From NCBI GenBank assembly GCA_964615415.1, contig CAZTNI010000002.1, positions 4,873 through 68,872 of the forward strand: 64,000 nt of DNA, written 5' to 3'. Below are positions 3,587 through 55,754 of this stretch, one piece after another. The stretch comes from an uncultured Candidatus Saccharibacteria bacterium (GTDB lineage Bacteria > Patescibacteriota > Minisyncoccia > Phycocordibacterales > SBAW01). A program made the translations under genes and the position numbers. How positions within the stretch are numbered: position 1 is the first letter of the stretch; each line of letters opens with the position of its first letter. The notes beneath the pieces are model-generated. The model did no database searches and was not told the DNA's origin. It was given only the letters and a program-made list of their open reading frames with translations.

Positions 3587-3589
3587 CCC

Positions 3590-31544: not shown

Positions 31545-31556
31545 GTGTACTATTCT

Positions 31557-32795
31557 ATGCCTTCCAGTAAAGAAAAGGGTGATCTGCTGGAAGAGATAAT
31601 TGAAGAACTGTGCGTAGGAATTAAAAATGTAAAAGTATCACGAAATTTAAAAATAATTGGTAAAAAAACTAAAGAAGAAAGAGAAATCGACGTTTATATC
31701 GAAGGAAAACAAGGAGTATTTGATATAAAAATTGCAATTGAATCTAAAAATTATGGAGAACCAGTGGGTGTTGAAAAAGTTGAGAGTTTCAAAGCAAAGT
31801 TAGAAGATATTGCTGCTGATTTAGGTGTAATGGTGTGTCCAACTGGATTTACAGAGCCAGCAAAAAAACGAGCAGAGTTTGACGGAATTCAATTATTTGA
31901 GGTGTATGATGAACGGCTGGGTAACAGCAAATGGTTTATTCCTATTCGTTTCATTGAACCTGAATTAACAAAACATCGCTTTACTTTTAAAGGGAGGGGA
32001 GGTGGTCCTTTCTCAATATCTATAGATTCACAAAAATGGAGATTTCATATAGAAGGGAAAATACTCACAACTGAAGAGTTCACCACCTATCTGTGGAATA
32101 AAGGAAAGATTCCTCAAAAAGCAGGTGAACATAAAATTGATCACGGCGCAGTCGTTATTAGTGAAGAAGGGAATCCAGATAAGGTGCAATATTGTGAAAT
32201 AGAAGTAGATGTTGTAGTTGAAGAGCGATATTTTTTAAAATTAATTCCAGCCTCTTTTCTTAAAAAAACTTCTGAAAATAAACAAAATTTCCAAATCAAA
32301 TTAGATCTCTATTCTAAGGAAAAAGACATGTTAAATAATGGTTGGAGAAAATTTCTCACTTTAGAAGAAATGAACCAAGCGGCAGATATTGAAAATCAAC
32401 CAGAAGGAATTAGGGGTTTAATATTGCATCCGAAGTATACGTATGAGTATGCTAAAAAGCACGAATTGCGTTTGCATCCGCGACCTTTCGAAAAGATTCG
32501 CAGCGGCAAGCAAATAATCGAGTCGCGGCTCAATGATGAAAAGCGTCAACAGATTAAAGTCGGGGACCATCTTGTGTTTGCTTTGCGGCCAGATTTTGTA
32601 GAAAAAGAAGAGGTGGAAGTGGTGGAGCTAATCCATGCGCCCACATTCCGCGACCTATTTCTTTCGCGTCCACTTACGGAATTTGGTATAGAAGATGGAA
32701 ACATTGAGCGAGTAGAAAATATGTACGAATACTACTCCAAAGAAGATGAAGCAAAATACGGAGTAGTTGGTATAAAATTTAAAAAACATGGCTAA
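31557..32795 (+). CDS. Mrr-like PD-(D/E)XK nuclease fused to a C-terminal ASCH (PUA-like) domain; candidate modification-dependent restriction endonuclease
   Basis: N-terminus: EIDVYIEGK ... IKIAIESKNYG (D...ExK restriction-endonuclease core). C-terminus: FEKIRSGKQIIESR...IKVGDHLVF...VEVVELIHAPTF...YGVVGIKFK matches the ASCH fold (compare E. coli YqfB). The N-terminal two thirds are about 32% GC; the ASCH part is about 47% GC. Confidence 0.65.
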   Translation: MPSSKEKGDLLEEIIEELCVGIKNVKVSRNLKIIGKKTKEEREIDVYIEGKQGVFDIKIAIESKNYGEPVGVEKVESFKAKLEDIAADLGVMVCPTGFTEPAKKRAEFDGIQLFEVYDERLGNSKWFIPIRFIEPELTKHRFTFKGRGGGPFSISIDSQKWRFHIEGKILTTEEFTTYLWNKGKIPQKAGEHKIDHGAVVISEEGNPDKVQYCEIEVDVVVEERYFLKLIPASFLKKTSENKQNFQIKLDLYSKEKDMLNNGWRKFLTLEEMNQAADIENQPEGIRGLILHPKYTYEYAKKHELRLHPRPFEKIRSGKQIIESRLNDEKRQQIKVGDHLVFALRPDFVEKEEVEVVELIHAPTFRDLFLSRPLTEFGIEDGNIERVENMYEYYSKEDEAKYGVVGIKFKKHG

Positions 32796-33264
32796 ACCTC
32801 CACAACAGTCGCCGGATTTTCCTGATGCTTTTTATCGTGTGACGGTAAAGGGGATCTGTGTGCGTGATGGAAAAGTGCTTTTTGTGCGCGATGTCACGAA
32901 TAAACATCGTGTAAATGGTTCTTTAGAGCTTCCTGGTGGCGGGCTCGATTTTGGCGAAGATATAGAAAAAGGTTTTGTGCGCGAGGTGCAAGAGGAAATG
33001 GGTTTGAAAGTAAAATGGATGTCCAAAAAACCTTTGTATCTCTGGACGTCGAAACAGGGGTCGAGGCGGGGAATGGAATGGTACTGGGTGCTTGTGCTCG
33101 CATATACGTTTGATGTAGAAGATTTTAACTTCACTCCTACTGACGAATGCAGAGAGTTAGTTTTTCTCTCTAAGGAAGAAATGAAAGAACGTCGCGACGA
33201 CATGGCAACCCAGATTCAATTTTTGGTTGAATATTTTGATCCAAAGGATTTTGAAAATAAGTAG
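32788..33264 (+). CDS. NUDIX hydrolase
   Basis: Nudix box GGGLDFGEDIEKGFVREVQEEMGL (GX5EX7REUXEEXGU); the ATG overlaps the upstream stop by 8 nt. Confidence 0.85.
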   Translation: MAKPPQQSPDFPDAFYRVTVKGICVRDGKVLFVRDVTNKHRVNGSLELPGGGLDFGEDIEKGFVREVQEEMGLKVKWMSKKPLYLWTSKQGSRRGMEWYWVLVLAYTFDVEDFNFTPTDECRELVFLSKEEMKERRDDMATQIQFLVEYFDPKDFENK

Positions 33265-33343
33265 AGCAGATGGTTGACTAACTGAGGTTTTTGTACTATT
33301 ATAGTTTCGGAACTTCCTTACACACAACAGGAAAGGGAATCAC

Positions 33344-33841
33344 ATGGGTTTCTTTAGCTTCTTTTTTGGCGGGAACAAGAAGCCTGCGCGCCAGCAGTGG
33401 CCGCAGGACCGCTTTGTCCCGCCTCCGCCTCCTCCTGCGTCTGCTCATACTCATCGGCGGAAGCCGAGGTATGTCATCGGTCCGAATCGGAAGGTGTTCT
33501 ACCCGCAGCCGAATGGGACCTATCAGGCCGATGACGGCGCGGTCATCAACTCTGTCATCCTCCAGGGCTTGCTCGCGGATGGTGAGGTGGGCGGGTACCG
33601 TGCGGTTGAGACGTTGCCGGCTGACCTGGTGCGTCATCCGCAGCCGCCCAGCATGGGACACGGCGTGCCGGTCTTCGACGCTCATGCGCATCATCGCCAT
33701 GACCACGGACTGCATCATCGTCATGAACCGGCTCACACGCCTTCCGGCTTCGATTCAAGCCCGTCCCTGGGTGGTGGCTCTGACACAGGCGGTGGCTCTT
33801 CTGGCGGGGGCGACTCCGGTGGCGGAGGTGGGAGCTTCTAG
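33344..33841 (+). CDS. Pro/His/Gly-rich low-complexity protein (GC-rich islet)
   Basis: Shine-Dalgarno GGAAAGGGA; PPPPPP, HAHHRHDHGLHHRHEP and GGGSSGGGDSGGGGGS tracts; own terminator. Confidence 0.5.
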   Translation: MGFFSFFFGGNKKPARQQWPQDRFVPPPPPPASAHTHRRKPRYVIGPNRKVFYPQPNGTYQADDGAVINSVILQGLLADGEVGGYRAVETLPADLVRHPQPPSMGHGVPVFDAHAHHRHDHGLHHRHEPAHTPSGFDSSPSLGGGSDTGGGSSGGGDSGGGGGSF

Positions 33842-33865
33842 CACTCTTGTTCTTCTATAATATGC

Positions 33866-33900
33866 AGCCGCGGCACAAAGTGCCGCGGTTTTTCTTTTTG
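33866..33900 (+). terminator. rho-independent terminator
   Basis: CCGCGGCAC-aaa-GTGCCGCGG followed by TTTTTCTTTTT. Confidence 0.7.
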
Positions 33901-33939
33901 TGGTATAACTCCGGTTAGAATTGAACCCGGGAGACAACG

Positions 33940-34362
33940 ATGCAGACAATTGAAGACAAACCAAAGGTAATAGAAAAGGTTGCGTGGACATACATACGCG
34001 ACGGCAAAGTGCTCATGGCTCGCTCACGTGAACAAACACTTTTTTATTGCCCTGGCGGCAAGATAGAGAGTGGCGAGACGCACGTGCAAGCGCTTGTCCG
34101 AGAAATCGACGAAGAGCTTGGTGTCAGTATTGTCCCTGACACGATAGAGGCGTTTTGTTTGGTTGAAGGTCCGGCGCATGGCCGTCAGGACACGCTGCTC
34201 CGCATGCACTGCTACACGGCAGACTATGTAGGAATGCTTACTCCTTCGGGAGAAGTCGAAGAATATGATTTTCTTGGTACTTCCAAAGAGGATCTGGCGC
34301 GAACAACCGAGTCTGGCCGCCTCTACCTTGCGCAAGTGCAGGTGCGCGGGCTTATTGCCTAA
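33940..34362 (+). CDS. NUDIX hydrolase (MutT-like)
   Basis: Nudix box GGKIESGETHVQALVREIDEELGV. Confidence 0.8.
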   Translation: MQTIEDKPKVIEKVAWTYIRDGKVLMARSREQTLFYCPGGKIESGETHVQALVREIDEELGVSIVPDTIEAFCLVEGPAHGRQDTLLRMHCYTADYVGMLTPSGEVEEYDFLGTSKEDLARTTESGRLYLAQVQVRGLIA

Positions 34363-34416
34363 GCGCCTGCATTTGCTACGATGCGCAGTATCTAGCTTTC
34401 AACAAGGGAGAGTAAG

Positions 34417-34713
34417 ATGACGCTTAAGCAGCGTCGGCGCATCAAGCGCCGGAATGGAATTCATGTGCCTACCCGCGCTTCGAAGCGCGGGTGGAAGGCG
34501 CGGGGCTTTATGGCCCTTGCTTTGGCACCGACGCCGCCGCGCGCTCCGGAGCCGGTCGCGGTACGCACTGTGGCGTCCAAGCCTCGTGTGTTGCCGGGGT
34601 CGACCCCTACGAAGCCGAGGGTCGCGCAGTTGCCGGAGTCGCTCATGAAGCCGGTCAGGCGCCCTCGGCGCAAGCAGCCGCATCCCGACGAGGAGCTTGC
34701 AGCAGCCGAATAG
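34417..34713 (+). CDS. small basic Pro/Arg-rich protein (GC-rich islet)
   Basis: Shine-Dalgarno GGGAGAGTAAG; KQRRRIKRRNG; own strong terminator. Confidence 0.5.
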   Translation: MTLKQRRRIKRRNGIHVPTRASKRGWKARGFMALALAPTPPRAPEPVAVRTVASKPRVLPGSTPTKPRVAQLPESLMKPVRRPRRKQPHPDEELAAAE

Positions 34714-34735
34714 CCTGCACTGTTCTTTTAATATC

Positions 34736-34766
34736 GCCGCACCCTCACGAGGGTGCGGCTTTTCTT
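34736..34766 (+). terminator. rho-independent terminator
   Basis: GCCGCACCCTC-acga-GGGTGCGGC followed by TTTTCTT. Confidence 0.7.
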
Positions 34767-34821
34767 AATCGTATCTTTAGCGGCACTGTAAGAAAATAAG
34801 ATCTCACACATCATATAGGGT

Positions 34822-34974
34822 ATGAGAGCGCGATATTATTACTATAGAGACACTGCTGGGGTAACCCTTCTAACACTTGCGGTAGTCACCGCATACTCGC
34901 TCTGGGGTGCCCATGTGCTTAAAGCAGAGAGTTCTGTGGGAGCGGTCTCACAGGCTGTCGCTGTAGAAAGTTAA
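34822..34974 (+). CDS. possible 50-aa hydrophobic peptide
   Basis: Hand-translated: MRARYYYYRDTAGVTLLTLAVVTAYSLWGAHVLKAESSVGAVSQAVAVES. Weak RBS; could be a leader peptide for the 34994 gene. Confidence 0.2.
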   Translation: MRARYYYYRDTAGVTLLTLAVVTAYSLWGAHVLKAESSVGAVSQAVAVES

Positions 34975-34993
34975 TAGTACTATTCACCTATAT

Positions 34994-35743
34994 ATGATGA
35001 ATAAGCAATTTATTGCAGGGTTCGTGCTCGCAGCCTTGGTGCTGGTCGGAGCAGTTACCTTTGCTTCGTGGAATGGGGGCGGCACGCCTGTGGATTCCGG
35101 CAACACGTCGAGCGGCTTGTCGCAGGCAGACAAAACTCGTTTTATTGATACTGTGCGCGCAAAGGTTGTGGCGGAAATCGGTCAGCCGATCGAAGGCTAC
35201 GAGCCGTTTATGTTTATGCGTGTGTATCCGGGGTTAATCGCGCAGGATTTCAACAACATAGATGCGCTCATTGGCCGCTATGTGGTAGCTAATGGTCAGG
35301 TAACCTACGACCTTAATGGCGAACAGGAACTGCATTCTGCAGCTCGTGCGATTTCCGACGAAGGCATGGAGCAGTTGTTTCTGAACATTCTTGCCCGCAT
35401 AAGTTTGATGGCCGGCAGCGACCAGGTTGATGGCGTCTTGAATGCAATTAGCGCAGCTCCAGGTCCGGATCCGACTGTCGGCACAGGAACTGAGACGACG
35501 CTTACGGGCAAGATCACTTGCCTCCCGCACAAGGGTGACGGTCCGCACACTATGGAATGCGCATTCGGTCTGGTGACCGCCGAGGGTAACCACTATGCGC
35601 TGCAAAATCTGTGGGATGTTGCACCGACTATTACCGACACCGAAGTGCGCGTACGTGTTACCGGCGTAGTTTCTACACCGGCAGCGAACGAAAAATACGA
35701 CATTGTTGGTGTTGTAAAAGTAACAAAAGTAGAAAAACTCTAA
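34994..35743 (+). CDS. membrane-anchored/secreted hypothetical protein
   Basis: N-terminal signal anchor (FIAGFVLAALVLVGAVTFA); followed by a terminator. Confidence 0.6.
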   Translation: MMNKQFIAGFVLAALVLVGAVTFASWNGGGTPVDSGNTSSGLSQADKTRFIDTVRAKVVAEIGQPIEGYEPFMFMRVYPGLIAQDFNNIDALIGRYVVANGQVTYDLNGEQELHSAARAISDEGMEQLFLNILARISLMAGSDQVDGVLNAISAAPGPDPTVGTGTETTLTGKITCLPHKGDGPHTMECAFGLVTAEGNHYALQNLWDVAPTITDTEVRVRVTGVVSTPAANEKYDIVGVVKVTKVEKL

Positions 35744-35755
35744 ACAATGTTTCCA

Positions 35756-35782
35756 AAACTGCCCCACTCGGGGCAGTTTTTC
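35756..35782 (+). terminator. rho-independent terminator
   Basis: AAAACTGCCCC-actc-GGGGCAGTTTTT. Confidence 0.7.
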
Positions 35783-35798
35783 GGTATATACTTGGGGA

Positions 35799-36342
35799 GA
35801 TGAACGACAGTTCGTTTTTAAATCCTCTCCAAGCAGTTGCCGCGGCGCATGTGCACGAAGGCATGCATGTTGCGGACTTTGGTAGCGGGTCCGGCTTTTT
35901 TGCTCGCGCAGCTGCGCGGGAAGTGGGCGAGCACGGGGTCGTATGGGCGATAGACATTAACCGCGATCTTCTGCCACGACTGAAAACCATCGCGCATGCT
36001 GAAGGCTTGCGTAATGTCGAAGTGCTCCACGGTAATGTGTCAGAGGAAAAGGGGAGCAACTTGCCGCCCGACTCTGTCGACCTGGTTATAGCAGCGAACG
36101 TGTTATTTACGCTTGAAGACAAAGAAGGCTGCGTTAAGGAAATAAAACGCGTACTTAAAAAGGGTGGCCGCGCTTTGGTTATAGACTGGTCGGACTCTTG
36201 GGGCGGCTTGGGTCCGCACAAAGACCATGTGCTTACGGAGGCAGATGCGCGCGAGCTGTTTGAAAAACATGGGTTTCTTACGAGCGACCCCATTCCTGCG
36301 GGTGCCTACCACTGGGGATTTATCGGTAGGAAAAAGTCGTAA
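35799..36342 (+). CDS. class I SAM-dependent methyltransferase
   Basis: Motif I VADFGSGSGFFA; motif post-I WAIDIN; Shine-Dalgarno GGGGAG. Confidence 0.8.
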
Positions 36343-36364
36343 GGTGCGGCACTATTAAGCAAAC

Positions 36365-37657
36365 ATGTCTACATTTCAAATTATTGTGCTCGGTATATTT
36401 GGCGCATTAGTGCTCCTTGGTGTCGGTGTGTTTGCTACGATGGGGGGCTTGGGTAACAGTAATGCGGTGGGGAATGTAGTGGTGTGGGGTACGCTGCCCG
36501 CACTGACGGTCAACGAGGCACTAGCAGAGGGAGACAAAGACATATTGGGAGGTGTGTCGTATGTATATAAAAATCCTGCTACGTATGAAAAAGATTTAGT
36601 AGACGCTATGGCGAGCGGCAAGGGTCCGGACCTCTTCTTGATATCGACCGAAGAGGTAACTACCTTTGCCGACAAAATCATCCCTATTCCGTATCGCTAT
36701 GTCTCGCAGGGTACGTTTTTAAACTCGTTTATAGACGGCGCACAACAATTCCTAACTCCGCAGGGCGCACTCGCGCTACCGTTTACGATCGACCCGCTTG
36801 TTATGTACTGGAACCGGGACCTCTTTGCGGGTGCAGGTGTTGCAACGCCGCCGGTCTACTGGAACGACTTTTTAGAATTGGCGCCGAAAATAACGTCGTA
36901 TAACGTTGGTTCTGCGGTAAAGAAAAGTAGCGTTGCTCTTGGCGAGTGGCGCAATGTCGACCATGCAAAAGAAATTTTATACACGCTCTTTATGCAAGCG
37001 GGTGACCGTGTTGTGGTGCGCGGGAGTAACGGTACGCCTACGTCAGTCTTTGGGGAAAATACCGCGCGCGTAAACGGTGCAGCGGAGTCTGTGGTGCGCT
37101 TTTATACCGAATTTGCCAACCCGACAAAAACCAGCTACTCGTGGAATCGTTCCCTCCCGCGCTCGCGTGAAGCATTTATTGCCGGCGACTTGGCAGTGTA
37201 TTTTGGGTTAGTGAGCGAGGGAAGCAGTTTTGTCACTCGCAACCCTAACCTGCGCTTTGGTGTAGCGGAAGTGCCGCAGATTGAGGGAAATAGCTCAAAA
37301 TTTACCTACGGCTTACTGAGTGGGCTCGCTATTGCCCGCACGGCGCGCAATCCAAACGGCGCCGTTGTTGTGGCTCAAGAGTTATCTGGACCGGCAGTTG
37401 TTGCGGCGCTTGTGGGCACGACCGGGTTGCCGCCGGTCCGACGCGATGTCTCGGTAAATACCACCGCGAACGCCAGTGTTGGAATTGCTATAAAGTCGGC
37501 GTTGTACTCGTGGGGCTTCCTTGACCCTAATCCACTGGAGACCTCTGCCGCATTTCAGACCATGATAGAATCCGTAATAAGCGGGGCAAATACGCCAAGC
37601 GAAGCAGTGCGGGATGCTGCACAGGAACTTCGTTCACTTATGCCTTCGTCTCGATAA
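36365..37657 (+). CDS. extracellular solute-binding protein (ABC transporter SBP, family 1-like), membrane anchored
   Basis: N-terminal TM anchor, then an SBP_bac_1-like pattern (GPDLFLISTEEV, DPLVMYWNRDLF, VYWNDFLEL). Confidence 0.7.
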   Translation: MSTFQIIVLGIFGALVLLGVGVFATMGGLGNSNAVGNVVVWGTLPALTVNEALAEGDKDILGGVSYVYKNPATYEKDLVDAMASGKGPDLFLISTEEVTTFADKIIPIPYRYVSQGTFLNSFIDGAQQFLTPQGALALPFTIDPLVMYWNRDLFAGAGVATPPVYWNDFLELAPKITSYNVGSAVKKSSVALGEWRNVDHAKEILYTLFMQAGDRVVVRGSNGTPTSVFGENTARVNGAAESVVRFYTEFANPTKTSYSWNRSLPRSREAFIAGDLAVYFGLVSEGSSFVTRNPNLRFGVAEVPQIEGNSSKFTYGLLSGLAIARTARNPNGAVVVAQELSGPAVVAALVGTTGLPPVRRDVSVNTTANASVGIAIKSALYSWGFLDPNPLETSAAFQTMIESVISGANTPSEAVRDAAQELRSLMPSSR

Positions 37658-37660
37658 CGT

Positions 37661-38071
37661 ATGATACGCACATTTTTTGTAACTCTGGCACTCCTCCTTT
37701 CGCCGCTATTTGTCTTTGCACAAGGAGGAGGGTTTGATACACCAGGTGGTGGTGTTGATACTGCAGGAGGAGGAGTCGACAATGCCTACTCGCTCCAGAA
37801 TCCTCTTAACGTTAGCTCTGTTCCGGAGCTCCTCGACCGATTTTTCCAAGCGATTCTTATAATTGTAGTGCCGTTTGCGGTTTTGTTTATTGTCTACGCT
37901 GGTTTTCGGCTTATTCTTGCGCGTGGTAATCCGAAGGAGCTTGCAACCGCGAAGCGTCAGCTCCTTTATACACTGCTTGGTATCGCAATTGTTATCAGTG
38001 CCTCAATCATCATCAATATCCTGATAGACACCGCGTGTCAGGTTGATATTAGAGGTGTGTCTGACTGCTAG
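37661..38071 (+). CDS. pilin-like small protein, copy 1 (signal peptide + 2 TM; VirB2/TrbC-like architecture)
   Basis: Signal peptide ...VFAQ; Gly-rich mature N-terminus; helix - NPKELATAKRQ loop - helix; ends in NILID. Confidence 0.55.
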   Translation: MIRTFFVTLALLLSPLFVFAQGGGFDTPGGGVDTAGGGVDNAYSLQNPLNVSSVPELLDRFFQAILIIVVPFAVLFIVYAGFRLILARGNPKELATAKRQLLYTLLGIAIVISASIIINILIDTACQVDIRGVSDC

Positions 38072-38073
38072 CT

Positions 38074-38409
38074 ATGTTTGAAGACGTCCGTACATTTGCA
38101 GACTTTGTGGCCGTTATAGTCGGCTATGTAAACCTTATTGTAGGGTTGTTAGCCTCGATAGCGTTGTTGATGTTTTTAGTAAACATTGTGCGTTTTGTAT
38201 TTGAAATCTCGAGCGGAAAGTATAAAGCAGAGCGTAAAAAGGCAATTATGTGGAGTGTTGTTGCGCTCTTCGTCCTTTTTTCTATTGCAGGCATTGTCCG
38301 TGTGTTGATGGTTACATTGTTGCCTAACGAAACGTACCGGGAGTCCTGGACCACAGACCGTACAAACTACCCGAACCAGTACCCGGTCGACATAGACTCG
38401 CTTAACTAG
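38074..38409 (+). CDS. pilin-like small protein, copy 2
   Basis: The same helix - basic loop (SSGKYKAERKKAIMW) - helix module; starts 3 nt after copy 1. Confidence 0.5.
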   Translation: MFEDVRTFADFVAVIVGYVNLIVGLLASIALLMFLVNIVRFVFEISSGKYKAERKKAIMWSVVALFVLFSIAGIVRVLMVTLLPNETYRESWTTDRTNYPNQYPVDIDSLN

Positions 38410-38488
38410 TTGTCCACAGGAAGGCCCGCTGGGCCTTGAGGCAGGGGTTGGGTCTGCTACAGTTAAGGCATATAAGTATTAATATTGT

Positions 38489-38836
38489 ATGAAAAAGTTA
38501 CTTGCAGCTTCGTCTTTGATATATGCTCTTCCGTTCGTTGCGTTTGCACAGACAGACGCAAAAGATACTATTACTCAGCTTGTGGAAGCACTAGGAGGTA
38601 TCGTAGATCTTCTTATCCCAATAATGATCGGTTTGGCTCTCGTTATCTTCTTCTGGGGTCTTATCCGCTTCGTATTTAACCAGGGTAGCGATAAAGCAGC
38701 AGCTGCTAAGAAGTACATGCTTTGGAGCGTTATCGCACTCTTCATCATGGTGTCTATCATGGGCATTATCGGAGTGATCCGCACCACCTTGGGTGTTAAC
38801 GAGGATTCAACTATAAAGGCTCCAAGTATTAACTAA
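38489..38836 (+). CDS. pilin-like small protein, copy 3
   Basis: Signal peptide ...AFAQ; LIPIMIGLALVIFFWGLIRFVF - NQGSDKAAAAKKY - MLWSVIALFIMVSIMGIIGVI. Confidence 0.55.
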   Translation: MKKLLAASSLIYALPFVAFAQTDAKDTITQLVEALGGIVDLLIPIMIGLALVIFFWGLIRFVFNQGSDKAAAAKKYMLWSVIALFIMVSIMGIIGVIRTTLGVNEDSTIKAPSIN

Positions 38837-38842
38837 TTCTGA

Positions 38843-39118
38843 ATGGATCCGCGCTCGTTTACACAGAGTCTCTCGGACAATGTTATCCAGCCCTTCATAC
38901 TCTTGTTCTTCGCGCTCGGGTTCCTGATCTTCGTCTACGGTATTGTGGAGTACGTGTGGGGTCTTTCGACCGACACGCTTGCTAAGGAAAACGGCAAGAA
39001 GCACATGCTCTGGGGAGTCATCGGTATGTTTATCATGGCGGGTGCGTATGGGATCTTTAACCTCATGGTGGATCTGATAGGCGCTCCAGTCGGTGTCGAC
39101 ACTATCTGGCGAGACTAA
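38843..39118 (+). CDS. pilin-like small protein, copy 4
   Basis: FILLFFALGFLIFVYGIVEYVW - AKENGKKH - MLWGVIGMFIMAGAYGIF; same module. Confidence 0.5.
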   Translation: MDPRSFTQSLSDNVIQPFILLFFALGFLIFVYGIVEYVWGLSTDTLAKENGKKHMLWGVIGMFIMAGAYGIFNLMVDLIGAPVGVDTIWRD

Positions 39119-39135
39119 AAAACAGACAAAAGAAA

Positions 39136-39170
39136 AACGGCGGGCCCTGAAAAGGGTCCGCCGTTTGCGT
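39136..39170. terminator. bidirectional rho-independent terminator
   Basis: AACGGCGGGCCC-tgaaaa-GGGTCCGCCGTT with an A-run upstream and TTGCGTT downstream. Confidence 0.7.
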
Positions 39171-39181
39171 TGTAGAAGGTA

Positions 39182-40063
39182 CTAGAAACAGACGTAGAGG
39201 CTGGTGCGTGGTGAGTGCGGAATGCAGAGCGTGTGCGAGATGGTCGCCTCTGCGGTAACTGCCTGCACCGAGTAGATGCTGTACGCAGTTACCACCACGT
39301 CGCCGCGCACACAGGCGCGGTCTATCACCACTTCGCCCGCGCGGTTGAGGAAGGCAACACAGCCCGACTCGACCACCCAGCGTAGCTCGCAGCCGTTTGC
39401 ACTGATTACTCGCGGTTCTTCTCCTGCCCGAAGGGGGAGAAGTTCCGACGTGCCAGGGCACGCGGCTGCTGCTGCACTTTCAGAAAATGGCCACCACATT
39501 GTCTCTACGATCTGGGCGCGTGCCGAGGAGACGAGCCCCAAGGTCACAACGACCGCAAAGAAGGTGAGTGCAAGATGGTTAGGCTTCATCGCGCCGGGGC
39601 TTATCATCGAAATGATGATGAGGACGACGAGGTAGGCGATCGACCCCACGAGAATACCCACCAAGATAAGAAGAGCGATGTCTGTCACGAAGGACAAGAC
39701 CGGCTCTGGGATCACCCTGGTAACATTCTCGTACACTTCCGGCGGCACAATCGTCACGAGGGCGGTCAGGCCGATGGTAAGGAAGAGAACCGGAGCCCAT
39801 GCCCACCAGTACCGCCAGATGCTGCTTCGTCCGGACGATGTGTCCGACGAAGAGGTTTCAGAGGCGTGTTCCTCGTGCCCATGATCCTCCGCGTGTTCGT
39901 CGTGGTGGTCGTCTGCATGATGGTCGGTGTGAGGTGCCGGAGCAGTCATGGTCTCCTTGATCCTTTTGGTGCGACGATGGTCGCGATACAAGCCAAGGGC
40001 GACGATACTGAAGAGCAGTAACGCCCCCACTAGAGCAAGTGTTGCTATCTGTCCTACTGTCAT
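39182..40063 (-). CDS. polytopic membrane protein with a His-rich loop and a C-terminal soluble domain (possibly NfeD-like)
   Basis: HTDHHADDHHDEHAEDHGHEEH tract; four TM helices; C-terminal approximately 100-aa soluble domain; start overlaps the upstream SPFH gene stop (ATGA). Confidence 0.45.
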   Translation of the reverse strand: MTVGQIATLALVGALLLFSIVALGLYRDHRRTKRIKETMTAPAPHTDHHADDHHDEHAEDHGHEEHASETSSSDTSSGRSSIWRYWWAWAPVLFLTIGLTALVTIVPPEVYENVTRVIPEPVLSFVTDIALLILVGILVGSIAYLVVLIIISMISPGAMKPNHLALTFFAVVVTLGLVSSARAQIVETMWWPFSESAAAAACPGTSELLPLRAGEEPRVISANGCELRWVVESGCVAFLNRAGEVVIDRACVRGDVVVTAYSIYSVQAVTAEATISHTLCIPHSPRTSLYVCF

Positions 40064-41370
40064 GGAGTGTCAGGTCCTTGTGGCGGAGTAGTGCCGCTGG
40101 TACGGTTTCTCCGGTCAGGGTTGCGCAGAGCGTCGAGAATAGCCACCTGTACTGGATCAACGGACGGGCCGCTGGTGCCAGGGAGGATAACCATTCCGCC
40201 TGCTTCGCCGGCAGCTTTCGCTGCACGGACCATTCCTTCGATGTGCGGAATCGCTTCCGCACCTGGGTGAGTCTTGAGAGCCTCGCCCTGTTCGCGAATG
40301 TCGGCTGCCTTGCCTTTTGCGCGCTCTTCCATCGCCTGACGGTCGATGCGAGCAATGGCGAGGTCGCCGAGAGCATCATATCGACTCTTGTCAGACGGGC
40401 TGATGTCGAGTACTTGGACAGAGGGAAGTGCGATGCCGAACTCAACGGCAGCGCCCTGCATGATGACGCCTCTTATAATGCGACCATTCTCGTTGAGAAT
40501 AGTTTCTTCGAGCTCGCGCACTAGCGCAGGACTTTCCGCCGACAACACAGCTTCAAGAGGCCGGGGCCTCGTATAATGCGTTACCGAGTCAGAGATCGTT
40601 GCGATAAGACGTGTACCCCAGTCGTCGTCCGAATTGTACGCAGTGAGGTGCGGATTGAATACCCGCGCTATTGCGTTGACAAGGATTTCGACCGGGATCT
40701 TGTCCTTCGTGTCGGCAGCCGGTACCCGCAAGGGGAACTGGAAGTCGCCGACGCGATAGTGGTCGCTCCAGTCAAGGAGTCGACGAAGTTCGATCTCGCC
40801 ACCGCTTTGCGTGATCTTCTTGAAGTGCTCAAGAGGATAGGTGCGGACTTTCTGGAACGGGTAGATGCCGGTAAAGACAGCACCCGTCAACCAGTACACC
40901 CACTCCTTCCACAACCAGAAGAGAATGCTGAGCGGCGAGTAGAAGATCCAGAGTATTGTCCATATCCCGTACAATCGCTTGGTGGGAAATGGAATAGGAT
41001 CTGAGCCGCCTGAGTAGATAGAAGGGACTACCTCCCAGTAGTGAACGTCTCGGATGGTGTAGCCGCTTGCAGGATCTTCGCCGAGGAACATCTTGTCGTG
41101 CGATTTCATAATCGCGTACTTAAAGAGGTCGCCTCGCTCGATTATCTTCACCTTCTCGGGTTCGATGTAGGTGAAGTAGCCAAAGTCCGACTTCTCGTGG
41201 TCTGGTGCTGTGCCGAGGTCGTCGTGCACGGTGTCCGTAGTGCCGCGGTATTTATTTGGCCTGTTGGTGAGTCTGTCGATAAGACCCGGCCACAATGGCA
41301 GCAGAAAGAGAAACAAAACTACGCTACCAAGAATGCCCAGTGCGTAGCCAAGAACCGGATCTACGATCAT
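40060..41370 (-). CDS. SPFH/band-7 (stomatin/flotillin-like) domain protein with an unusual 180-aa N-terminal 2-TM region
   Basis: SPFH core pattern (TKDKIPVEILVNAIARV...VEFGIALPSVQVLDISPSD) plus a coiled-coil tail; about 60% GC. Confidence 0.65.
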   Translation of the reverse strand: MIVDPVLGYALGILGSVVLFLFLLPLWPGLIDRLTNRPNKYRGTTDTVHDDLGTAPDHEKSDFGYFTYIEPEKVKIIERGDLFKYAIMKSHDKMFLGEDPASGYTIRDVHYWEVVPSIYSGGSDPIPFPTKRLYGIWTILWIFYSPLSILFWLWKEWVYWLTGAVFTGIYPFQKVRTYPLEHFKKITQSGGEIELRRLLDWSDHYRVGDFQFPLRVPAADTKDKIPVEILVNAIARVFNPHLTAYNSDDDWGTRLIATISDSVTHYTRPRPLEAVLSAESPALVRELEETILNENGRIIRGVIMQGAAVEFGIALPSVQVLDISPSDKSRYDALGDLAIARIDRQAMEERAKGKAADIREQGEALKTHPGAEAIPHIEGMVRAAKAAGEAGGMVILPGTSGPSVDPVQVAILDALRNPDRRNRTSGTTPPQGPDTP

Positions 41371-41735: not shown

Positions 41736-42599
41736 CTAAAAAAGTTTTCCGGGCATGAATCGCCACAGGAGTGGCGGGAGTTCCACAAGGTGTGTACAGA
41801 ATTGTTTTTTAAATTGCGAAAATCCTTTCCAGTGTTTGTCTTTGCCAGGGCCCCAAAATAATCCTAAATGTACAAAGCGCACACCCCGAGTAGCTGCCTC
41901 TCGGTGCCAGTAGTCCATGAGTCCGATCATGAGCGGGTCTTTACTTACTTCGTCTTGTATAAAGCCTGCTATGTAGTAGGTGCTTTTGGTGCTAGGCGAC
42001 CATAGGGTGGAGATCCCTGCCACTACTCTTCCTTTTGCGTCGCGGACACCGTATAGCTCGGTGTACGGTGTGTTTTGTATACAGTTACGTTCTGTGTAGG
42101 CAAGTTGCTGGTCGCCAATGTTTCTATACACAAAACTTTTTTTGTATGCAGCACTAAATTCTTCCATCGTAATAGGAGTGATTGTGTATGTGTTGTTCGC
42201 AACAAGAGTGAGCCATTTTTTGCAATAGCGTTTTGCAGTCGGTGCCCACGCGTCGTGGTAATCAGAGTTAAGGCTAAGGTCCGCGAAGCCGATTATTTCC
42301 GCAGGGCGTTTTGAAAATTGGTGCCATCCTTTTGGAATATCGCGGCGCCGCACGCGCGACCATGCAATAAAGCGAGGCGGCGGTGTACCAATGCGTGCTG
42401 CACTCGCAAGGTCTGGCTCCGTGTCGCTTATATATTTTTCAAAAAAAAGAGGCCAAATACCCCAGCGCAATCCTTTAGGGTGGGTGAGCAGTTCAAGAGA
42501 TTTTTGTGAGGAGGGAGGAGCGGTGGTGAGGTGATACTCAGGCCACTCTTCTTTAAGAGAGCATTCTTGGGGAATCGTCGTTTTAAAATGATCCTCCAT
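41736..42599 (-). CDS. FemAB-family (GNAT-fold) aminoacyltransferase-like protein
   Basis: C-terminal pattern IGLMDYWHREAATRGVRFVHLGLF...WKGFSQFKKQF resembles the FemAB/MurM C-terminus. The longer ORF upstream is a translation artefact of tRNA-Leu. Confidence 0.45.
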   Translation of the reverse strand: MEDHFKTTIPQECSLKEEWPEYHLTTAPPSSQKSLELLTHPKGLRWGIWPLFFEKYISDTEPDLASAARIGTPPPRFIAWSRVRRRDIPKGWHQFSKRPAEIIGFADLSLNSDYHDAWAPTAKRYCKKWLTLVANNTYTITPITMEEFSAAYKKSFVYRNIGDQQLAYTERNCIQNTPYTELYGVRDAKGRVVAGISTLWSPSTKSTYYIAGFIQDEVSKDPLMIGLMDYWHREAATRGVRFVHLGLFWGPGKDKHWKGFSQFKKQFCTHLVELPPLLWRFMPGKLF

Positions 42600-42609
42600 A
42601 TGTACTACT

Positions 42610-42700
42610 TGGTGCCGGGAGTGGGAATCGAACCCACACGAGCGTTTAACGGCTCCCAGGATTTTAAGTCCTGTATGTCTACCAATTCCATCATCCCGGC
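42610..42700 (-). tRNA. tRNA-Leu (anticodon TAA)
   Basis: 91 nt with CCA; anticodon loop CTTAAAA; long variable arm. Confidence 0.9.
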
Positions 42701-42728
42701 AATACACGCCATGATAGATGCGTATGCG

Positions 42729-54133: not shown

Positions 54134-55270
54134 ATGCCTCGTAAGCGGAAGGCTCTTGCACTTTTTTCAATTGGTATCGCACTCCTGCTTCCTGTCTTTA
54201 CCTATGCCCAAATACAGCCGAGCGGGGCGGGACTTGTGCCGTGCGGCGTTACACAAGACAGTCCTTTAAGTACAGAAAAAGATGTTGGAGTTGCTACAGA
54301 ATGCGAAGCCTGCCACTTGGTGCAGCTTACGCAAAATATTATCCACTTCCTGATAGGCCTTGCGGTTTCAATTGCAGTATTGATGTTTGCGTGGGCGGGT
54401 ATCCTCTTCTTTACCTCGAATGCAAATCCGGAGAAGATTAACAAAGGTAAGCGCATCTTCGGACAAACATTGTTTGGGTTCCTATTAGCGCTCTGTGCGT
54501 GGATTATAGTTAACACCCTCCTTTTTATTCTTATTGACCAACAGCAGTTCCCGCAAAGCACCTGGTTTGAAGTTGAATGTGCGAAAAGTCGGGCTGTAGT
54601 GGCCGATAAGGAGTTTGGTCAAATCGTGCTCGGCGCTATTGGTAACGTAGAATCTATACCGCTCTTTAAAATACAAGATGGCACCAGGCCGGACGGACAG
54701 TATTCATGTCCTGCTGGCTTTACGTACGACACGACTGCGCGTATGTGTCTGAACGGACAAGGGGGTGCAGAAGAGCCCGACTTTATTGCGCCTCTCGGCA
54801 GTGGAGCATTCACTCCTAATAGTGAAGCTACTGTCGATTTTGGATCTTGCGGAGGGGAGGGAAGTATTGGTAGCAGAATTATGCGGTGTGCCACCTTGTA
54901 TGCGGACTCAAGAGTAAGTTCTGCTAAGTGTAGTCCCAATGTAGATGGAGGAAACCTGGCATGTGCATGTATGGTAAACAAAATTCTTAACGGCGCCGGT
55001 ATTTTGTCTATAGATGCGGACAGTGTTCCTGATATGGTTGCGGCCCTAAAAGCTGGCAGAGGAAGGCAGATTTCTATTCAATCTGCGCAGCCTGGAGACA
55101 TTGTGTTTTGGCAATACACGAGCCCAAGAAGAAGCCATGTGGGTATTTGTGCAACTCCAGGCTGTACCCAGGTATACAGTAATTCCTCAAGTCAGGCCGT
55201 TGTACGTCTCACTACAAGTGATTATCTGGGCGTCGACCCTTCATCTGTTTATCGGATAAATGACTTCTAA
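54134..55270 (+). CDS. fusion: pilin-like N-terminal module (same family as 37661-39118) + C-terminal NlpC/P60-like cysteine peptidase (cell-wall hydrolase) domain
   Basis: N-terminus: signal peptide, CxxC, then IIHFLIGLAVSIAVLMFAWAGILFFTSNANPEKINKGKRIFGQTLFGFLLALCAWIIVNTLLFILID. C-terminus: Cys in NLACACMVNKIL and His in PGDIVFWQYTSPRRSHVGIC (papain-like Cys...His order). Confidence 0.6.
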   Translation: MPRKRKALALFSIGIALLLPVFTYAQIQPSGAGLVPCGVTQDSPLSTEKDVGVATECEACHLVQLTQNIIHFLIGLAVSIAVLMFAWAGILFFTSNANPEKINKGKRIFGQTLFGFLLALCAWIIVNTLLFILIDQQQFPQSTWFEVECAKSRAVVADKEFGQIVLGAIGNVESIPLFKIQDGTRPDGQYSCPAGFTYDTTARMCLNGQGGAEEPDFIAPLGSGAFTPNSEATVDFGSCGGEGSIGSRIMRCATLYADSRVSSAKCSPNVDGGNLACACMVNKILNGAGILSIDADSVPDMVAALKAGRGRQISIQSAQPGDIVFWQYTSPRRSHVGICATPGCTQVYSNSSSQAVVRLTTSDYLGVDPSSVYRINDF

Positions 55271-55274
55271 CTAT

Positions 55275-55754
55275 ATGAATAAATCAATCACCGTACTAAT
55301 AGTTATATGTATCCTTGTGATCCTCGGTGTTGCCGCGGTCTTGTTTTGGCCACGCGCAACTATGCCTGTCCCTAATGAAACACCAGGTCTGCCTGTCTCA
55401 GGGAATTCTAATACTAACGGTACTGTTTCAATTCCGGTTCAAAACGAAGGGGGTGGCAATTCGCAGCTTTCTGCTGAACAACGCGCTGTACAGGAGACGT
55501 ACTGGGCGCCTTTTGTAACCGACGGAAATAACGATAATGTGCGGCTTGGTAATACTGCCGTAGTAGAAGAATGGGCACTCCAAAAGTGGGTAGGAGATGA
55601 GACGGGAGGAGAAGCCCTACTTCGGTACGATAGTGTAAGTAAGGCGTGGGTGGTGGTGGACGTGGGCGGTGGAGCCTGGAGCGTCGATGCACTTGTCCGT
55701 GCGGGTGTACCTGAAAGCGTGGCAGGCTCTCTCCTTAGCAAACTGCGTCAATAA
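55275..55754 (+). CDS. membrane-anchored hypothetical protein
   Basis: N-terminal TM (ITVLIVICILVILGVAAVLF); the start overlaps the upstream gene end. Confidence 0.5.
   Translation: MNKSITVLIVICILVILGVAAVLFWPRATMPVPNETPGLPVSGNSNTNGTVSIPVQNEGGGNSQLSAEQRAVQETYWAPFVTDGNNDNVRLGNTAVVEEWALQKWVGDETGGEALLRYDSVSKAWVVVDVGGGAWSVDALVRAGVPESVAGSLLSKLRQ

Follow-up and report, generated by a model that had tools for sequence, protein, structure and literature searches.

A VirB2-like pilin module fused to a divergent NlpC/P60–CHAP-type peptidase domain in Patescibacteria: a candidate membrane-anchored cell-wall hydrolase

Why should a pilin carry a peptidase domain at its C-terminus? The question is raised by a gene at 54134..55270 (+) in a 64,000-nucleotide stretch of DNA from an uncultured Candidatus Saccharibacteria bacterium, referred to here as the window. 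The gene is an ATG-to-stop open reading frame encoding 378 aa plus stop, with exact ends according to the ORF listing and a checked translation; its start codon is backed by homologues that share an initial M-x-R-K-R/Q-K, and a protein identical to its product is already recorded in NCBI. Its GC content is 47.8%, compared with 50% for the window, and a scan for promoters and terminators around it gave none beyond shuffle expectation. A literature search found no papers mentioning pilin–hydrolase fusions. The product is a Sec-exported membrane protein composed of a PF18895 hairpin, a flexible linker and a divergent NlpC/P60–CHAP-type cysteine peptidase domain.

The N-terminus had been assigned in a preliminary description to the same family as an array at 37661..39118 (+), of which the fusion would be the fifth pilin-like member, and both assignments were borne out. 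Residues 62–129 matched PF18895 (T4SS_pilin) with 39.5 bits (E 5.9e-10, profile positions 5–71 of 71), above the gathering cut-off of 26.6 bits. The array consists of four stand-alone pilin genes (37661..38071, 38074..38409, 38489..38836 and 38843..39118), paralogues of the N-terminal module of the fusion, and all four passed the same cut-off, the scores being 54.0, 34.5, 32.5 and 27.7 bits. A local pilin HMM run against all six frames of the whole window recovered the same five ORFs and no sixth. Pairwise identity was 23–40%; by BLASTP, the fusion N-terminus was 27% identical to the first array pilin over 124 aa. With the related TrbC profile (PF04956, cut-off 27.9 bits), that first array pilin scored exactly 27.9 bits and the fusion fell below, at 19.3 bits (E 0.0013).

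Hydropathy peaks in the fusion protein at residues 5–27, 62–97 and 107–137 correspond to helices at 3–24, 54–94 and 99–133 in the full-length model, the latter two with pLDDT 80–90. The protein thus has the PF18895-type layout, a signal peptide followed by a two-helix hairpin with a short positive loop. The signal peptide, residues 1–25 (54134..54208, +; MPRKRKALALFSIGIALLLPVFTYA, followed by QIQ), is of the Sec type, with a predicted cleavage point at an A-x-A-like site. The VirB2/TrbC-like hairpin, residues 62–135 (54317..54538, +), comprises a first transmembrane helix at approximately 66–94, a K/R-rich loop at 95–108 containing the positively charged stretch SNANPEKINKGKRI, and a second helix at approximately 109–135. 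Between signal peptide and hairpin lies a Cys-rich extracytoplasmic segment, residues 26–61 (54209..54316, +; GLVPCG ... ATECEACH), which was modelled with low confidence and in which G31, G33, L34–G38, C37, C57, C60 and H61 are invariant in eight homologues. Its cysteines may pair with C149 of the linker as disulfides.

We also considered a type IV pilus pilin. Inspection of the N-terminal sequence MPRKRKALALFSIGIALLLPVFTYAQ showed a classical Sec-type signal and no class III prepilin motif (G|FTLIE), and these features, together with the two transmembrane helices, rule that assignment out. The evidence therefore supports a VirB2/TrbC-type T4SS pilin of the PF18895 family. A Foldseek search of the PDB with the full-length model was uninformative on the pilin fold because a two-helix hairpin is too simple; the sole pilin match, the archaeal conjugation pilus of A. 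pernix (8dfu), was non-significant (E 3.6, probability 0.44).

The linker, residues 136–233 (54539..54832, +), had no Pfam match. It contains a conserved W-F-x-V/I-x-C motif ending in C149, with a small beta module further on (approximately 189–218), and W144, F145, C149, C192 and C205 are invariant in the eight homologues. Model confidence was below 50 (pLDDT) for residues 152–186 and about 85 for the beta module, which includes C192 and C205. Because the protein has a signal peptide, two transmembrane helices and a K/R-rich loop between them, residues 136–378 should, as predicted from this arrangement, lie outside the cytoplasmic membrane.

The C-terminus had been described as a papain-like domain of about 200 aa. 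The fold assignment stood; the size did not, since the domain covers only about 145 aa (residues 234–378; 54833..55267, +) and 136–233 is mostly low-confidence linker. In Pfam it just missed both proposed families: against NLPC_P60 (PF00877, cut-off 23) the whole protein scored 20.1 bits and the isolated domain 22.5 bits, and against CHAP (PF05257, cut-off 26) the scores were 20.2–22.5 bits. Despite these sub-threshold scores, deeper profiles and the fold settle its identity. A profile built from 62 sequences matched CwlO (E 3.7e-7) and MepS/Spr (2–3e-4). The AF2 model of residues 230–378 (pLDDT 89.2, pTM 0.86) has the papain-like alpha+beta fold of NlpC/P60 peptidases; the top ~30 structural matches were peptidoglycan hydrolases, the closest solved relatives being CwlO, MepS, LytE and SagA, and the fold also resembles the T6SS amidase effectors Tae3, Tse1 and Tae4. 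A shallower profile of five sequences had a GLI zinc finger as its best PDB match (E 2e-4); this was spurious, caused by the C-x-x-GC-T ... SNSS stretch, and disappeared with the deeper profile.

Conservation within the domain picks out a putative catalytic triad in and near the motifs NLACACMVNKIL (274–285), PGDIVFWQY (320–328) and SHVGIC (334–339). Cys277 (codon 54962..54964, +, checked), the predicted nucleophile, lies near the N-terminal end of the modelled helix 274–287; it is present in all 62 aligned sequences and invariant in a 100-sequence alignment. The preliminary description had placed a catalytic-looking Cys here; the conserved residue is the first Cys of ACAC and not the second, since C279 is Trp in 53 of the 62 relatives. 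The His that it had singled out in SHVGIC also held. This residue, His335 (codon 55136..55138, +), is the predicted general base, sits in strand 334–339 and lines up with the His of the HVGI motif in CwlO and MepS, which is the catalytic His of those enzymes; it is present in 61/62 sequences, the sole exception being truncated, and is invariant among the 100. Asn350 (codon 55181..55183, +), within the SNSSS motif, is equally well conserved (61/62, and invariant among the 100) and is a candidate third member of the triad. On alignment grounds the third catalytic residue is likely to be Asn350 and not His; the corresponding position of MepS and CwlO aligns to 348–350 with an ambiguous register in HMMER, which makes S349 an alternative.

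The NlpC/P60 (MEROPS C40) DL-endopeptidases CwlO, LytE, MepS/Spr and SagA, and the Thermus thermophilus enzyme 4xcm, share with the fusion domain a PGD-hVhh ... HVGI motif and the Cys ... His order. The fusion domain differs from them in that identity is only 16–21% and in having a signature of its own, GPDGGNLACAWAVN ... SNSSS, or, with the histidine motif that it shares, GPDGGNLACAWAVN ... HVGI ... SNSSS for the whole subfamily. We conclude that the evidence supports a divergent papain-like hydrolase domain of the NlpC/P60–CHAP type, with predicted activity.

How widely is this arrangement distributed? The C-terminal domain was found in 878 clusters at 50% identity. Among the best 150 of these, the local HMM detected the pilin module in 66, and Pfam detected PF18895 in 48 of 100 domain relatives, so that retention of the fusion in orthologues, raised as a check at the outset, was confirmed. 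At E <= 1e-3, CHAP matched 23 of these 100 relatives and NLPC_P60 matched 5. Given the 23 CHAP matches, the subfamily is intermediate between these two families, inside the superfamily that they share. It is mostly missed by curated Pfam models, and these clusters define a large, uncurated NlpC/P60-like subfamily.

The pilin half has a distribution of its own. Close homologues of this pilin subfamily share 47–67% identity, with many invariant residues outside the transmembrane cores and with extra invariant cysteines (C37, C57, C60 and C149). Elsewhere the same subfamily is joined to SLT (PF01464; 51.5 and 52.3 bits) or to SLT_3 (PF18896; 31.3 bits), all above the respective cut-offs; it is also found as a stand-alone pilin at this chromosomal position, and it leads a pilin array. 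Three relatives have the same pilin and linker followed by a different C-terminus, which had no match in Pfam, in PDB profiles (even at E 10) or in PHROGs; its motifs S-x-H-x-x-G ... A-V-D and H-V-H prompt a guess at a LAS/M15 zinc peptidase. There is, then, a large family in Patescibacteria in which a conserved pilin scaffold bears swappable peptidoglycan-degrading domains (NlpC-like, SLT or SLT_3) or none. The exchange of these three domains on one scaffold points to peptidoglycan as their shared substrate.

The slot in which the fusion lies has the order ClpB, fusion, (partner), L33, miaA, ParB, and several variants of the family share it; in other Patescibacteria its occupant is this pilin joined to SLT or SLT_3, or the pilin by itself. 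The fusion thus has housekeeping genes around it (ClpB, L33, miaA, ParB and RelA). Scanning most ORFs of at least 150 aa in the 64-kb window revealed no members of the VirB3, VirB4, VirB6 or VirD4 families, and the ~6-kb flanks of nine related loci held no T4SS core genes. Pilin genes of Patescibacteria lie near virB4 in 1135 of 1948 assemblies, with many elsewhere, and such proximity is thus usual, not obligatory (PMC12102498). In the present case a T4SS link would follow only from the assignment of a simple two-helix hairpin to a pilin family, and because no T4SS ATPase gene is nearby the association with a pilus or T4SS is one that we infer.

Directly downstream, and overlapping the fusion gene by 11 nt, is the gene in the partner position (55260..55754, +; 164 aa in the ORF listing). 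Its product has an N-terminal transmembrane anchor, a low-complexity linker and a domain of ~75 aa (GGEALLRYD ... GGGAWSV ... GVP), the ectodomain lying at about residues 85–164. Neither Pfam nor PHROGs gave a match, and the NCBIfam model NF033672 ('copper uptake system-associated protein') scored 33.5 bits, below its cut-off of 50. The family has 64 members, and those with an organism name all belong to Patescibacteria; one further homologue, divergent and 200 aa long, comes from a genome that is probably non-CPR and has no hydrolase neighbour. Each of the NlpC-type fusions examined was immediately followed by the partner gene, and the type of partner gene changes with the type of catalytic domain; SLT_3-type fusions have an 'FSFCPGAT' partner (loci L010 and L013). 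These NlpC-type cases all fall within one conserved syntenic block (ClpB–L33–miaA), and the adjacency may therefore reflect shared ancestry. The SLT-type fusion of a Saccharibacteria locus, L006, has no partner gene. The partner proteins are candidate cognate partners of the catalytic domains.

With modest confidence, we lean towards the view that the fusion is a pilin-anchored, VirB1-like wall hydrolase that is targeted to a T4SS or pilus site, and that the downstream partner is its cognate regulator or inhibitor. The catalytic domain would cut peptide stems of peptidoglycan at the outer face of the cytoplasmic membrane. The pilin module would bring the enzyme to the site of pilus or T4SS assembly, or into the pilus as a minor subunit, and the protein would act in the manner of the VirB1-type hydrolases that are anchored in the membrane in Gram-positive conjugation systems, making local openings in the wall. 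The partner, membrane-anchored and translationally coupled, would most likely regulate or inhibit the catalytic domain. That a lytic enzyme might in this way sit on a filament or secretion conduit had been proposed in the preliminary description; the proposal gains from the occurrence of SLT and SLT_3 on the same scaffold elsewhere, and loses from the lack of a T4SS core gene nearby.

In Agrobacterium, VirB1* promotes T-pilus formation, so that a wall hydrolase is coupled to the VirB2 pilin. The two are separate proteins there, soluble and secreted, and VirB1 is an SLT-type enzyme. The fusion would be the 'Rosetta stone' version of this coupling, with the differences that its link would be covalent and that the organism is probably monoderm. 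Similar in architecture are the VirB1-type hydrolases TraG of pIP501, PrgK of pCF10, CwlT of ICEBs1, Orf14 of Tn916 and CTn1-Orf17/CTn7-Orf16, which like the fusion have an N-terminal membrane anchor and extracellular CHAP/NlpC-P60 or SLT domains. All VirB1 homologues of Gram-positive systems have a membrane anchor and extracellular domains of the CHAP, SLT, MUR or LytM type (PMC12857230). In contrast to these, the fusion has a VirB2-like pilin module for its anchor and carries one catalytic domain, the alternatives being found in other genomes, and its gene occupies a chromosomal housekeeping slot outside any T4SS cluster. For this last reason we propose that the fusion would work like VirB1, and do not count it as a member of the VirB1 family.

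Compared with the pilins described in Patescibacteria, the fusion is alike in scoring above the PF18895 cut-off, in its topology of signal peptide plus hairpin, and in sharing a window with a typical four-gene array; arrays of 2–11 pilin genes are known in these bacteria (PMC12102498), and tandem ones have been described in Saccharibacteria. The described pilins are small and stand-alone, whereas the fusion carries an enzymatic C-terminal extension of ~240 aa. A survey found that most Patescibacteria genomes with VirB2-like pilins are without a recognizable VirB1, and suggested that pilus biogenesis may not need it (PMC12102498). Pilin–hydrolase fusions may be the missing VirB1-like hydrolase, hidden among proteins counted as pilins, in a group, the Patescibacteria (CPR), that accounts for much of the diversity of bacteria.

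Another reading is that the fusion is a housekeeping autolysin. Its task would be to remodel the wall of its own cell during growth or division; the pilin-derived hairpin would be just a membrane anchor, with no functional tie to a T4SS or pilus. We consider this rather unlikely. It would account for the deeply conserved housekeeping slot devoid of nearby T4SS core genes and for a GC content close to that of the window; moreover, the nearest solved relatives, CwlO, MepS, LytE and SagA, are growth-related autolysins, and a neighbouring inhibitor would parallel the LytE–IseA complex (chain 8i2f). However, the anchor is no generic transmembrane segment but belongs to a strongly conserved pilin subfamily, which also appears as a stand-alone pilin in the slot and as the leading gene of a pilin array, and this single scaffold has acquired hydrolases of three unrelated folds.

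Might the target be the wall of another cell? In VirB2/TraA-type pili the pilin C-terminus is on the filament surface, so that an enzyme attached there would be exposed. The fusion could then be a minor or tip subunit of a VirB2-like pilus that breaches the peptidoglycan of the host bacterium carrying the epibiont, with the partner as the producer's immunity protein, a reading that we regard as improbable. Swappable catalytic domains with their own downstream partners do resemble effector–immunity pairs, and the similarity in fold to Tae3, Tse1 and Tae4 is in keeping with this. Furthermore, one Saccharibacterium cannot grow as an epibiont without its T4SS and pilin array (PMC10633639, PMC11665869). 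Against this, these pilins are not known to form a filament in this lineage, a C-terminal load of ~240 aa may fit a pilus lattice poorly, and the SLT-type fusion of L006 has no partner; in addition, the partner is anchored in the producer's membrane like the enzyme, and regulation fits as well as immunity.

Generalized to the whole family, the same idea would have VirB2-like pili of Patescibacteria bear a modular 'warhead' subunit with an NlpC-like, SLT, SLT_3 or further unclassified domain, each with a membrane-anchored immunity protein or regulator, that opens the host wall. We hold this to be similarly doubtful. If true, it would give a concrete mechanism to a T4SS that is essential and functionally unexplained: in the one species of Patescibacteria tested, neither the T4SS nor the VirB2-like pilin arrays are dispensable, and the role of the system has been called 'completely unknown' (PMC11665869, PMC10633639).

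Finally, it is very improbable that the C-terminal domain is no wall hydrolase at all, being instead a catalytically dead adhesin that binds the wall, or a papain-like enzyme that acts on something else, for example in pilin processing or acyl transfer: the Pfam scores below the cut-offs and the proposal that inactive VirB1 homologues act as adhesins in some Gram-positive systems (PMC12857230) would allow it, but the leading structural matches are all peptidoglycan hydrolases, the domain is exchanged with the lysozyme-like SLT and SLT_3 on the same scaffold, and the preservation of Cys277, His335 and Asn350 in essentially all relatives argues against a dead domain.

Among the orthologues, we note that tractable Saccharibacteria have an SLT-type fusion, which adjoins rpmG (locus L006).

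The fusion gene, an ATG-to-stop reading frame of 378 codons in the ORF listing (54134–55270, plus strand), has a GC content of 47.8%, close to the 50.1% of the window, and a protein identical to its product is recorded on one 294-kb NCBI contig. Its start codon is supported by the N-terminus M-x-R-K-R/Q-K with which its homologues begin. Hydropathy gives three hydrophobic stretches, residues 5–27, 62–97 and 107–137; the first, ending TYA/QIQ, looks like a Sec signal peptide, and between the second and third lies the basic loop SNANPEKINKGKRI. Once the signal peptide has been cleaved off, this loop would by the positive-inside rule be cytoplasmic, and residues 26–61 and all those beyond 135 would lie outside the membrane.

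The preliminary description had taken the N-terminal part for the fifth member of a pilin-like family in the window, and rightly so. Residues 62–129 match the Pfam family T4SS_pilin (PF18895) with 39.5 bits (E 5.9e-10), above the cut-off of 26.6 bits that all four small ORFs at 37661–39118 also pass, and a local pilin HMM run over all six frames of the window yielded these five ORFs and no sixth. TrbC/VirB2 (PF04956) scored 19.3 bits, under its cut-off of 27.9 bits. By sequence, the family is the VirB2/TrbC-like one of type IV secretion systems (T4SSs). A type IV pilus pilin was ruled out, because a class III signal motif is absent and there are two transmembrane (TM) helices. The AF2 model of the full-length protein (pLDDT 75.7) contains a helical hairpin (residues 54–94 and 99–133, pLDDT 80–90), followed by a linker (136–233) mostly of low model confidence, which encloses a small beta module, two cysteines of which are invariant.

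The C-terminal domain had been proposed to be of NlpC/P60 or CHAP type, a view upheld by fold and by deeper profiles, but not by the named Pfam models, whose sub-threshold scores (NlpC/P60, 20.1–22.5 bits against a cut-off of 23; CHAP, 20.2–22.5 against 26) are consistent with it. A five-sequence profile of the domain recovered 156 relatives in a word-indexed search, some labelled NlpC/P60 family protein by their source records, and 878 clusters with E ≤ 1e-3 (340 with E ≤ 1e-10) in an exhaustive search of 1.84 billion representatives, where the domain lies essentially always at the C-terminus. The catalytic-looking Cys and His are indeed conserved: in a 62-sequence alignment C277 occurs in every sequence (62/62) and H335 and N350 each in all but one (61/62), with G273, A276 and G321 invariant and C279, the second Cys of 'ACAC', replaced by Trp in 53 of the 62 relatives. 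A276, C277, H335 and N350 are still invariant across 100 sequences. The family signature reads GPDGGNLACAWAVN ... PGDIVI ... HVGI ... SNSSS, and N350 or S349 is a candidate for the third catalytic residue. The AF2 model of residues 230–378 (pLDDT 89.2, pTM 0.86) matches 4xcm in Foldseek (E 3.6e-4), and the 62-sequence profile matches CwlO (E 3.7e-7) and MepS/Spr (E 2–3e-4), with H335 aligned to the HVGI histidine of both. From residue conservation, predicted fold and profile matches, we conclude that the domain is a divergent member of the NlpC/P60–CHAP superfamily with its catalytic residues intact. The uncurated GPDGGNLACAWAVN/SNSSS subfamily is not confined to Patescibacteria: it has members in Myxococcota, Deltaproteobacteria, Cyanobacteria, Mesorhizobium/Rhizobium and one eukaryote record, where the domain either forms a short protein by itself or ends a secreted protein of 700–1100 aa (examples of proteins with the domain are P0033, P0034, P0084, P0144 and P0219). 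Glyco_hydro_19 is also present in 5 of 100 NlpC-like relatives.

The fusion is widely conserved among orthologues, in a pattern richer than the preliminary description expected, and its hydrolase domain is exchanged with other wall hydrolase folds. Its architecture is shared by the homologous proteins P0002–P0004 (47–48% identity) and P0008 (34%). A local HMM found the N-terminal pilin module in 66 of the 150 best representative clusters with the catalytic domain, mostly with a signal peptide and two TM helices; Pfam reports PF18895 in 48 of 100 relatives. A pilin-motif scan of one genome per species gave 11 loci, 10 in labelled Patescibacteria MAGs and one labelled only uncultured bacterium, whose ORFs belong to one pilin subfamily (C..C..QLIQNIINF, then W..I.C after the second TM helix) and differ in their C-termini. 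These are NlpC-like at locus L008 (a Candidatus Adlerbacteria genome), SLT (PF01464) at L006 and L007 (51.5 and 52.3 bits), SLT_3 (PF18896) at L010 (31.3 bits) and lysozyme-like, with weaker matches, at L005 and L013; L011, L012 and L014 encode the pilin alone (131–133 aa), without any C-terminal domain. P0005–P0007, proteins absent from the window, have the pilin and linker of the window protein (49–67% identity) and a fourth, Cys/His-rich C-terminal domain of ∼130 aa (SCHYGGRTCVG.SYAVDFG ... NHVHAS ... CGCQ), which has no match among Pfam, PDB and PHROG profiles and, going by motifs alone, may be a zinc peptidase. Many family members (P0008, L004:5311-7113, L005:5500-6936, L006:5443-7035, L010:5461-6810 and L013:5482-6912) have an extra ∼100-aa module between signal peptide and pilin hairpin, with the motif C.(I/L)(T/S/K)(V/A).P..(I/V/L)..G..(V/A/T).(L/V).W.S.N(A/V/T)..G.I...G.V...G; in appearance it resembles Ig or PKD modules (PKD at just E 0.078), and the window fusion is without it.

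The window comes from the chromosome of a small genome and is a housekeeping region, with gyrA, murJ, lepA, valS, ftsZ/ftsA, infB, clpB, miaA, parB, relA, topA and 13 tRNAs. Around the fusion gene, the window reads IF2, aminotransferase, trypsin-like protease, ClpB, tRNA-Tyr, fusion, partner, L33, tRNA-Trp, miaA, OMP decarboxylase, ParB, RelA, TopA, an order repeated around the NlpC-type fusions of L001, L008, L015, L016 and one JGI contig. SLT-type fusions of L004, L005, L007 and L009 are flanked by ClpB and/or miaA, that of L006 (Saccharibacteria) is followed by L33, and in L011 a pilin-only gene occupies the miaA–ParB–RelA–TopA slot. Because the slot is common to NlpC, SLT and pilin-only types, we conclude that wall-degrading domains were gained or exchanged, in different lineages, at a single orthologous pilin locus. 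The fusion is built from known families, and T4SS-associated wall hydrolases with a membrane anchor are likewise known; in open-access papers we found no description of a covalent fusion of VirB2-like pilin and wall hydrolase, nor of modular domain exchange at one pilin locus. The architecture is visible in precomputed Pfam annotations and may therefore have been noticed informally before.

The partner gene (55260–55754, plus strand) lies directly 3' of the fusion gene and overlaps it by 11 nt. Its 164-aa product consists of an N-terminal TM anchor and a conserved ∼75-aa domain, joined by a low-complexity linker. Its homologues lie directly 3' of every examined NlpC-type fusion; this partner type is a ∼150-aa 'GGEALL...GGGAWSV' protein. 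Behind the SLT_3-like fusions of L005, L009, L010 and L013 comes an unrelated protein of ∼190 aa, likewise TM-anchored, that ends NL.FSFCPGAT.L (L005:6966-7571, L009:7141-7698, L010:6820-7398, L013:6923-7495; mutual identity 40–48%), from MAGs labelled Patescibacteria group, Nomurabacteria and Saccharibacteria. At L004 the downstream protein is of a third type, also TM-anchored (L004:7132-7821), and the SLT-type fusion of L006 has no downstream partner. Because the downstream protein switches between NlpC, SLT_3-like and L004 types, the partner follows the catalytic domain rather than the pilin, pointing to a cognate regulator, inhibitor or immunity protein. All NlpC-type cases sit within one syntenic block, so that their adjacency may reflect shared ancestry. 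In L016 (a JGI contig), the public gene call is a 228-aa minus-strand ORF where tblastn shows a plus-strand pilin–NlpC fusion (2780–3988); given this wrong-strand call, annotation-based surveys could undercount fusions.

We propose that the fusion protein would be inserted via Sec, with the hydrolase domain facing the wall and cutting peptide stems, and that the pilin module would bring the hydrolase to the assembly site of VirB2-like pilins, or make it a minor subunit of the pilus itself. This mode is that thought for the VirB1 homologues of Gram-positive T4SSs, which are membrane-anchored (PMC12857230). A recognisable VirB1 is missing from most Patescibacteria genomes with VirB2-like pilins (PMC12102498), which, if the proposed mechanism is true, would be because pilin–hydrolase fusions do its job. 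The main alternative, a housekeeping autolysin for which the pilin-derived hairpin is merely the anchor, is favoured by the housekeeping context, which is conserved, and by the lack of neighbouring T4SS genes (no VirB4, VirB6 or VirD4 core family among the scanned window ORFs or related-locus flanks); however, the pilin module is strongly conserved, and it also stands alone in the same slot and heads an array (L014), and we consider this alternative unlikely. A host-directed enzyme displayed on the pilus, with the partner as its immunity protein, seems to us less likely still.

The neighbourhood of the pilin array in the window (29079–41370) runs from GyrA to a solute-binding protein (36365–37657), the four pilins (37661–39118), a His/Asp-rich TM protein (39182–40063, minus strand) and an SPFH/Band_7-like protein (40060–41370, minus strand), with a gap of 3 nt between the stop of the solute-binding protein and the first pilin start. 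The arrangement is conserved in L014:984-8708, where the order is GyrA, solute-binding protein, three pilins, SPFH; the GyrA homologue of this related Patescibacteria MAG (L014:984-4613) contains an intein (Intein_splicing, E 1.2e-20). Just 3' of gyrA in the window, an ORF with Mrr-type restriction endonuclease and ASCH domains (31545–32795) is followed by a NUDIX gene. A 323-aa ORF (41736–42707, minus strand) with zero Pfam matches overlaps at its 5' end the same-strand tRNA-Leu(taa) gene (42610–42700); because of this overlap, its real start probably lies further downstream, or the ORF is spurious.
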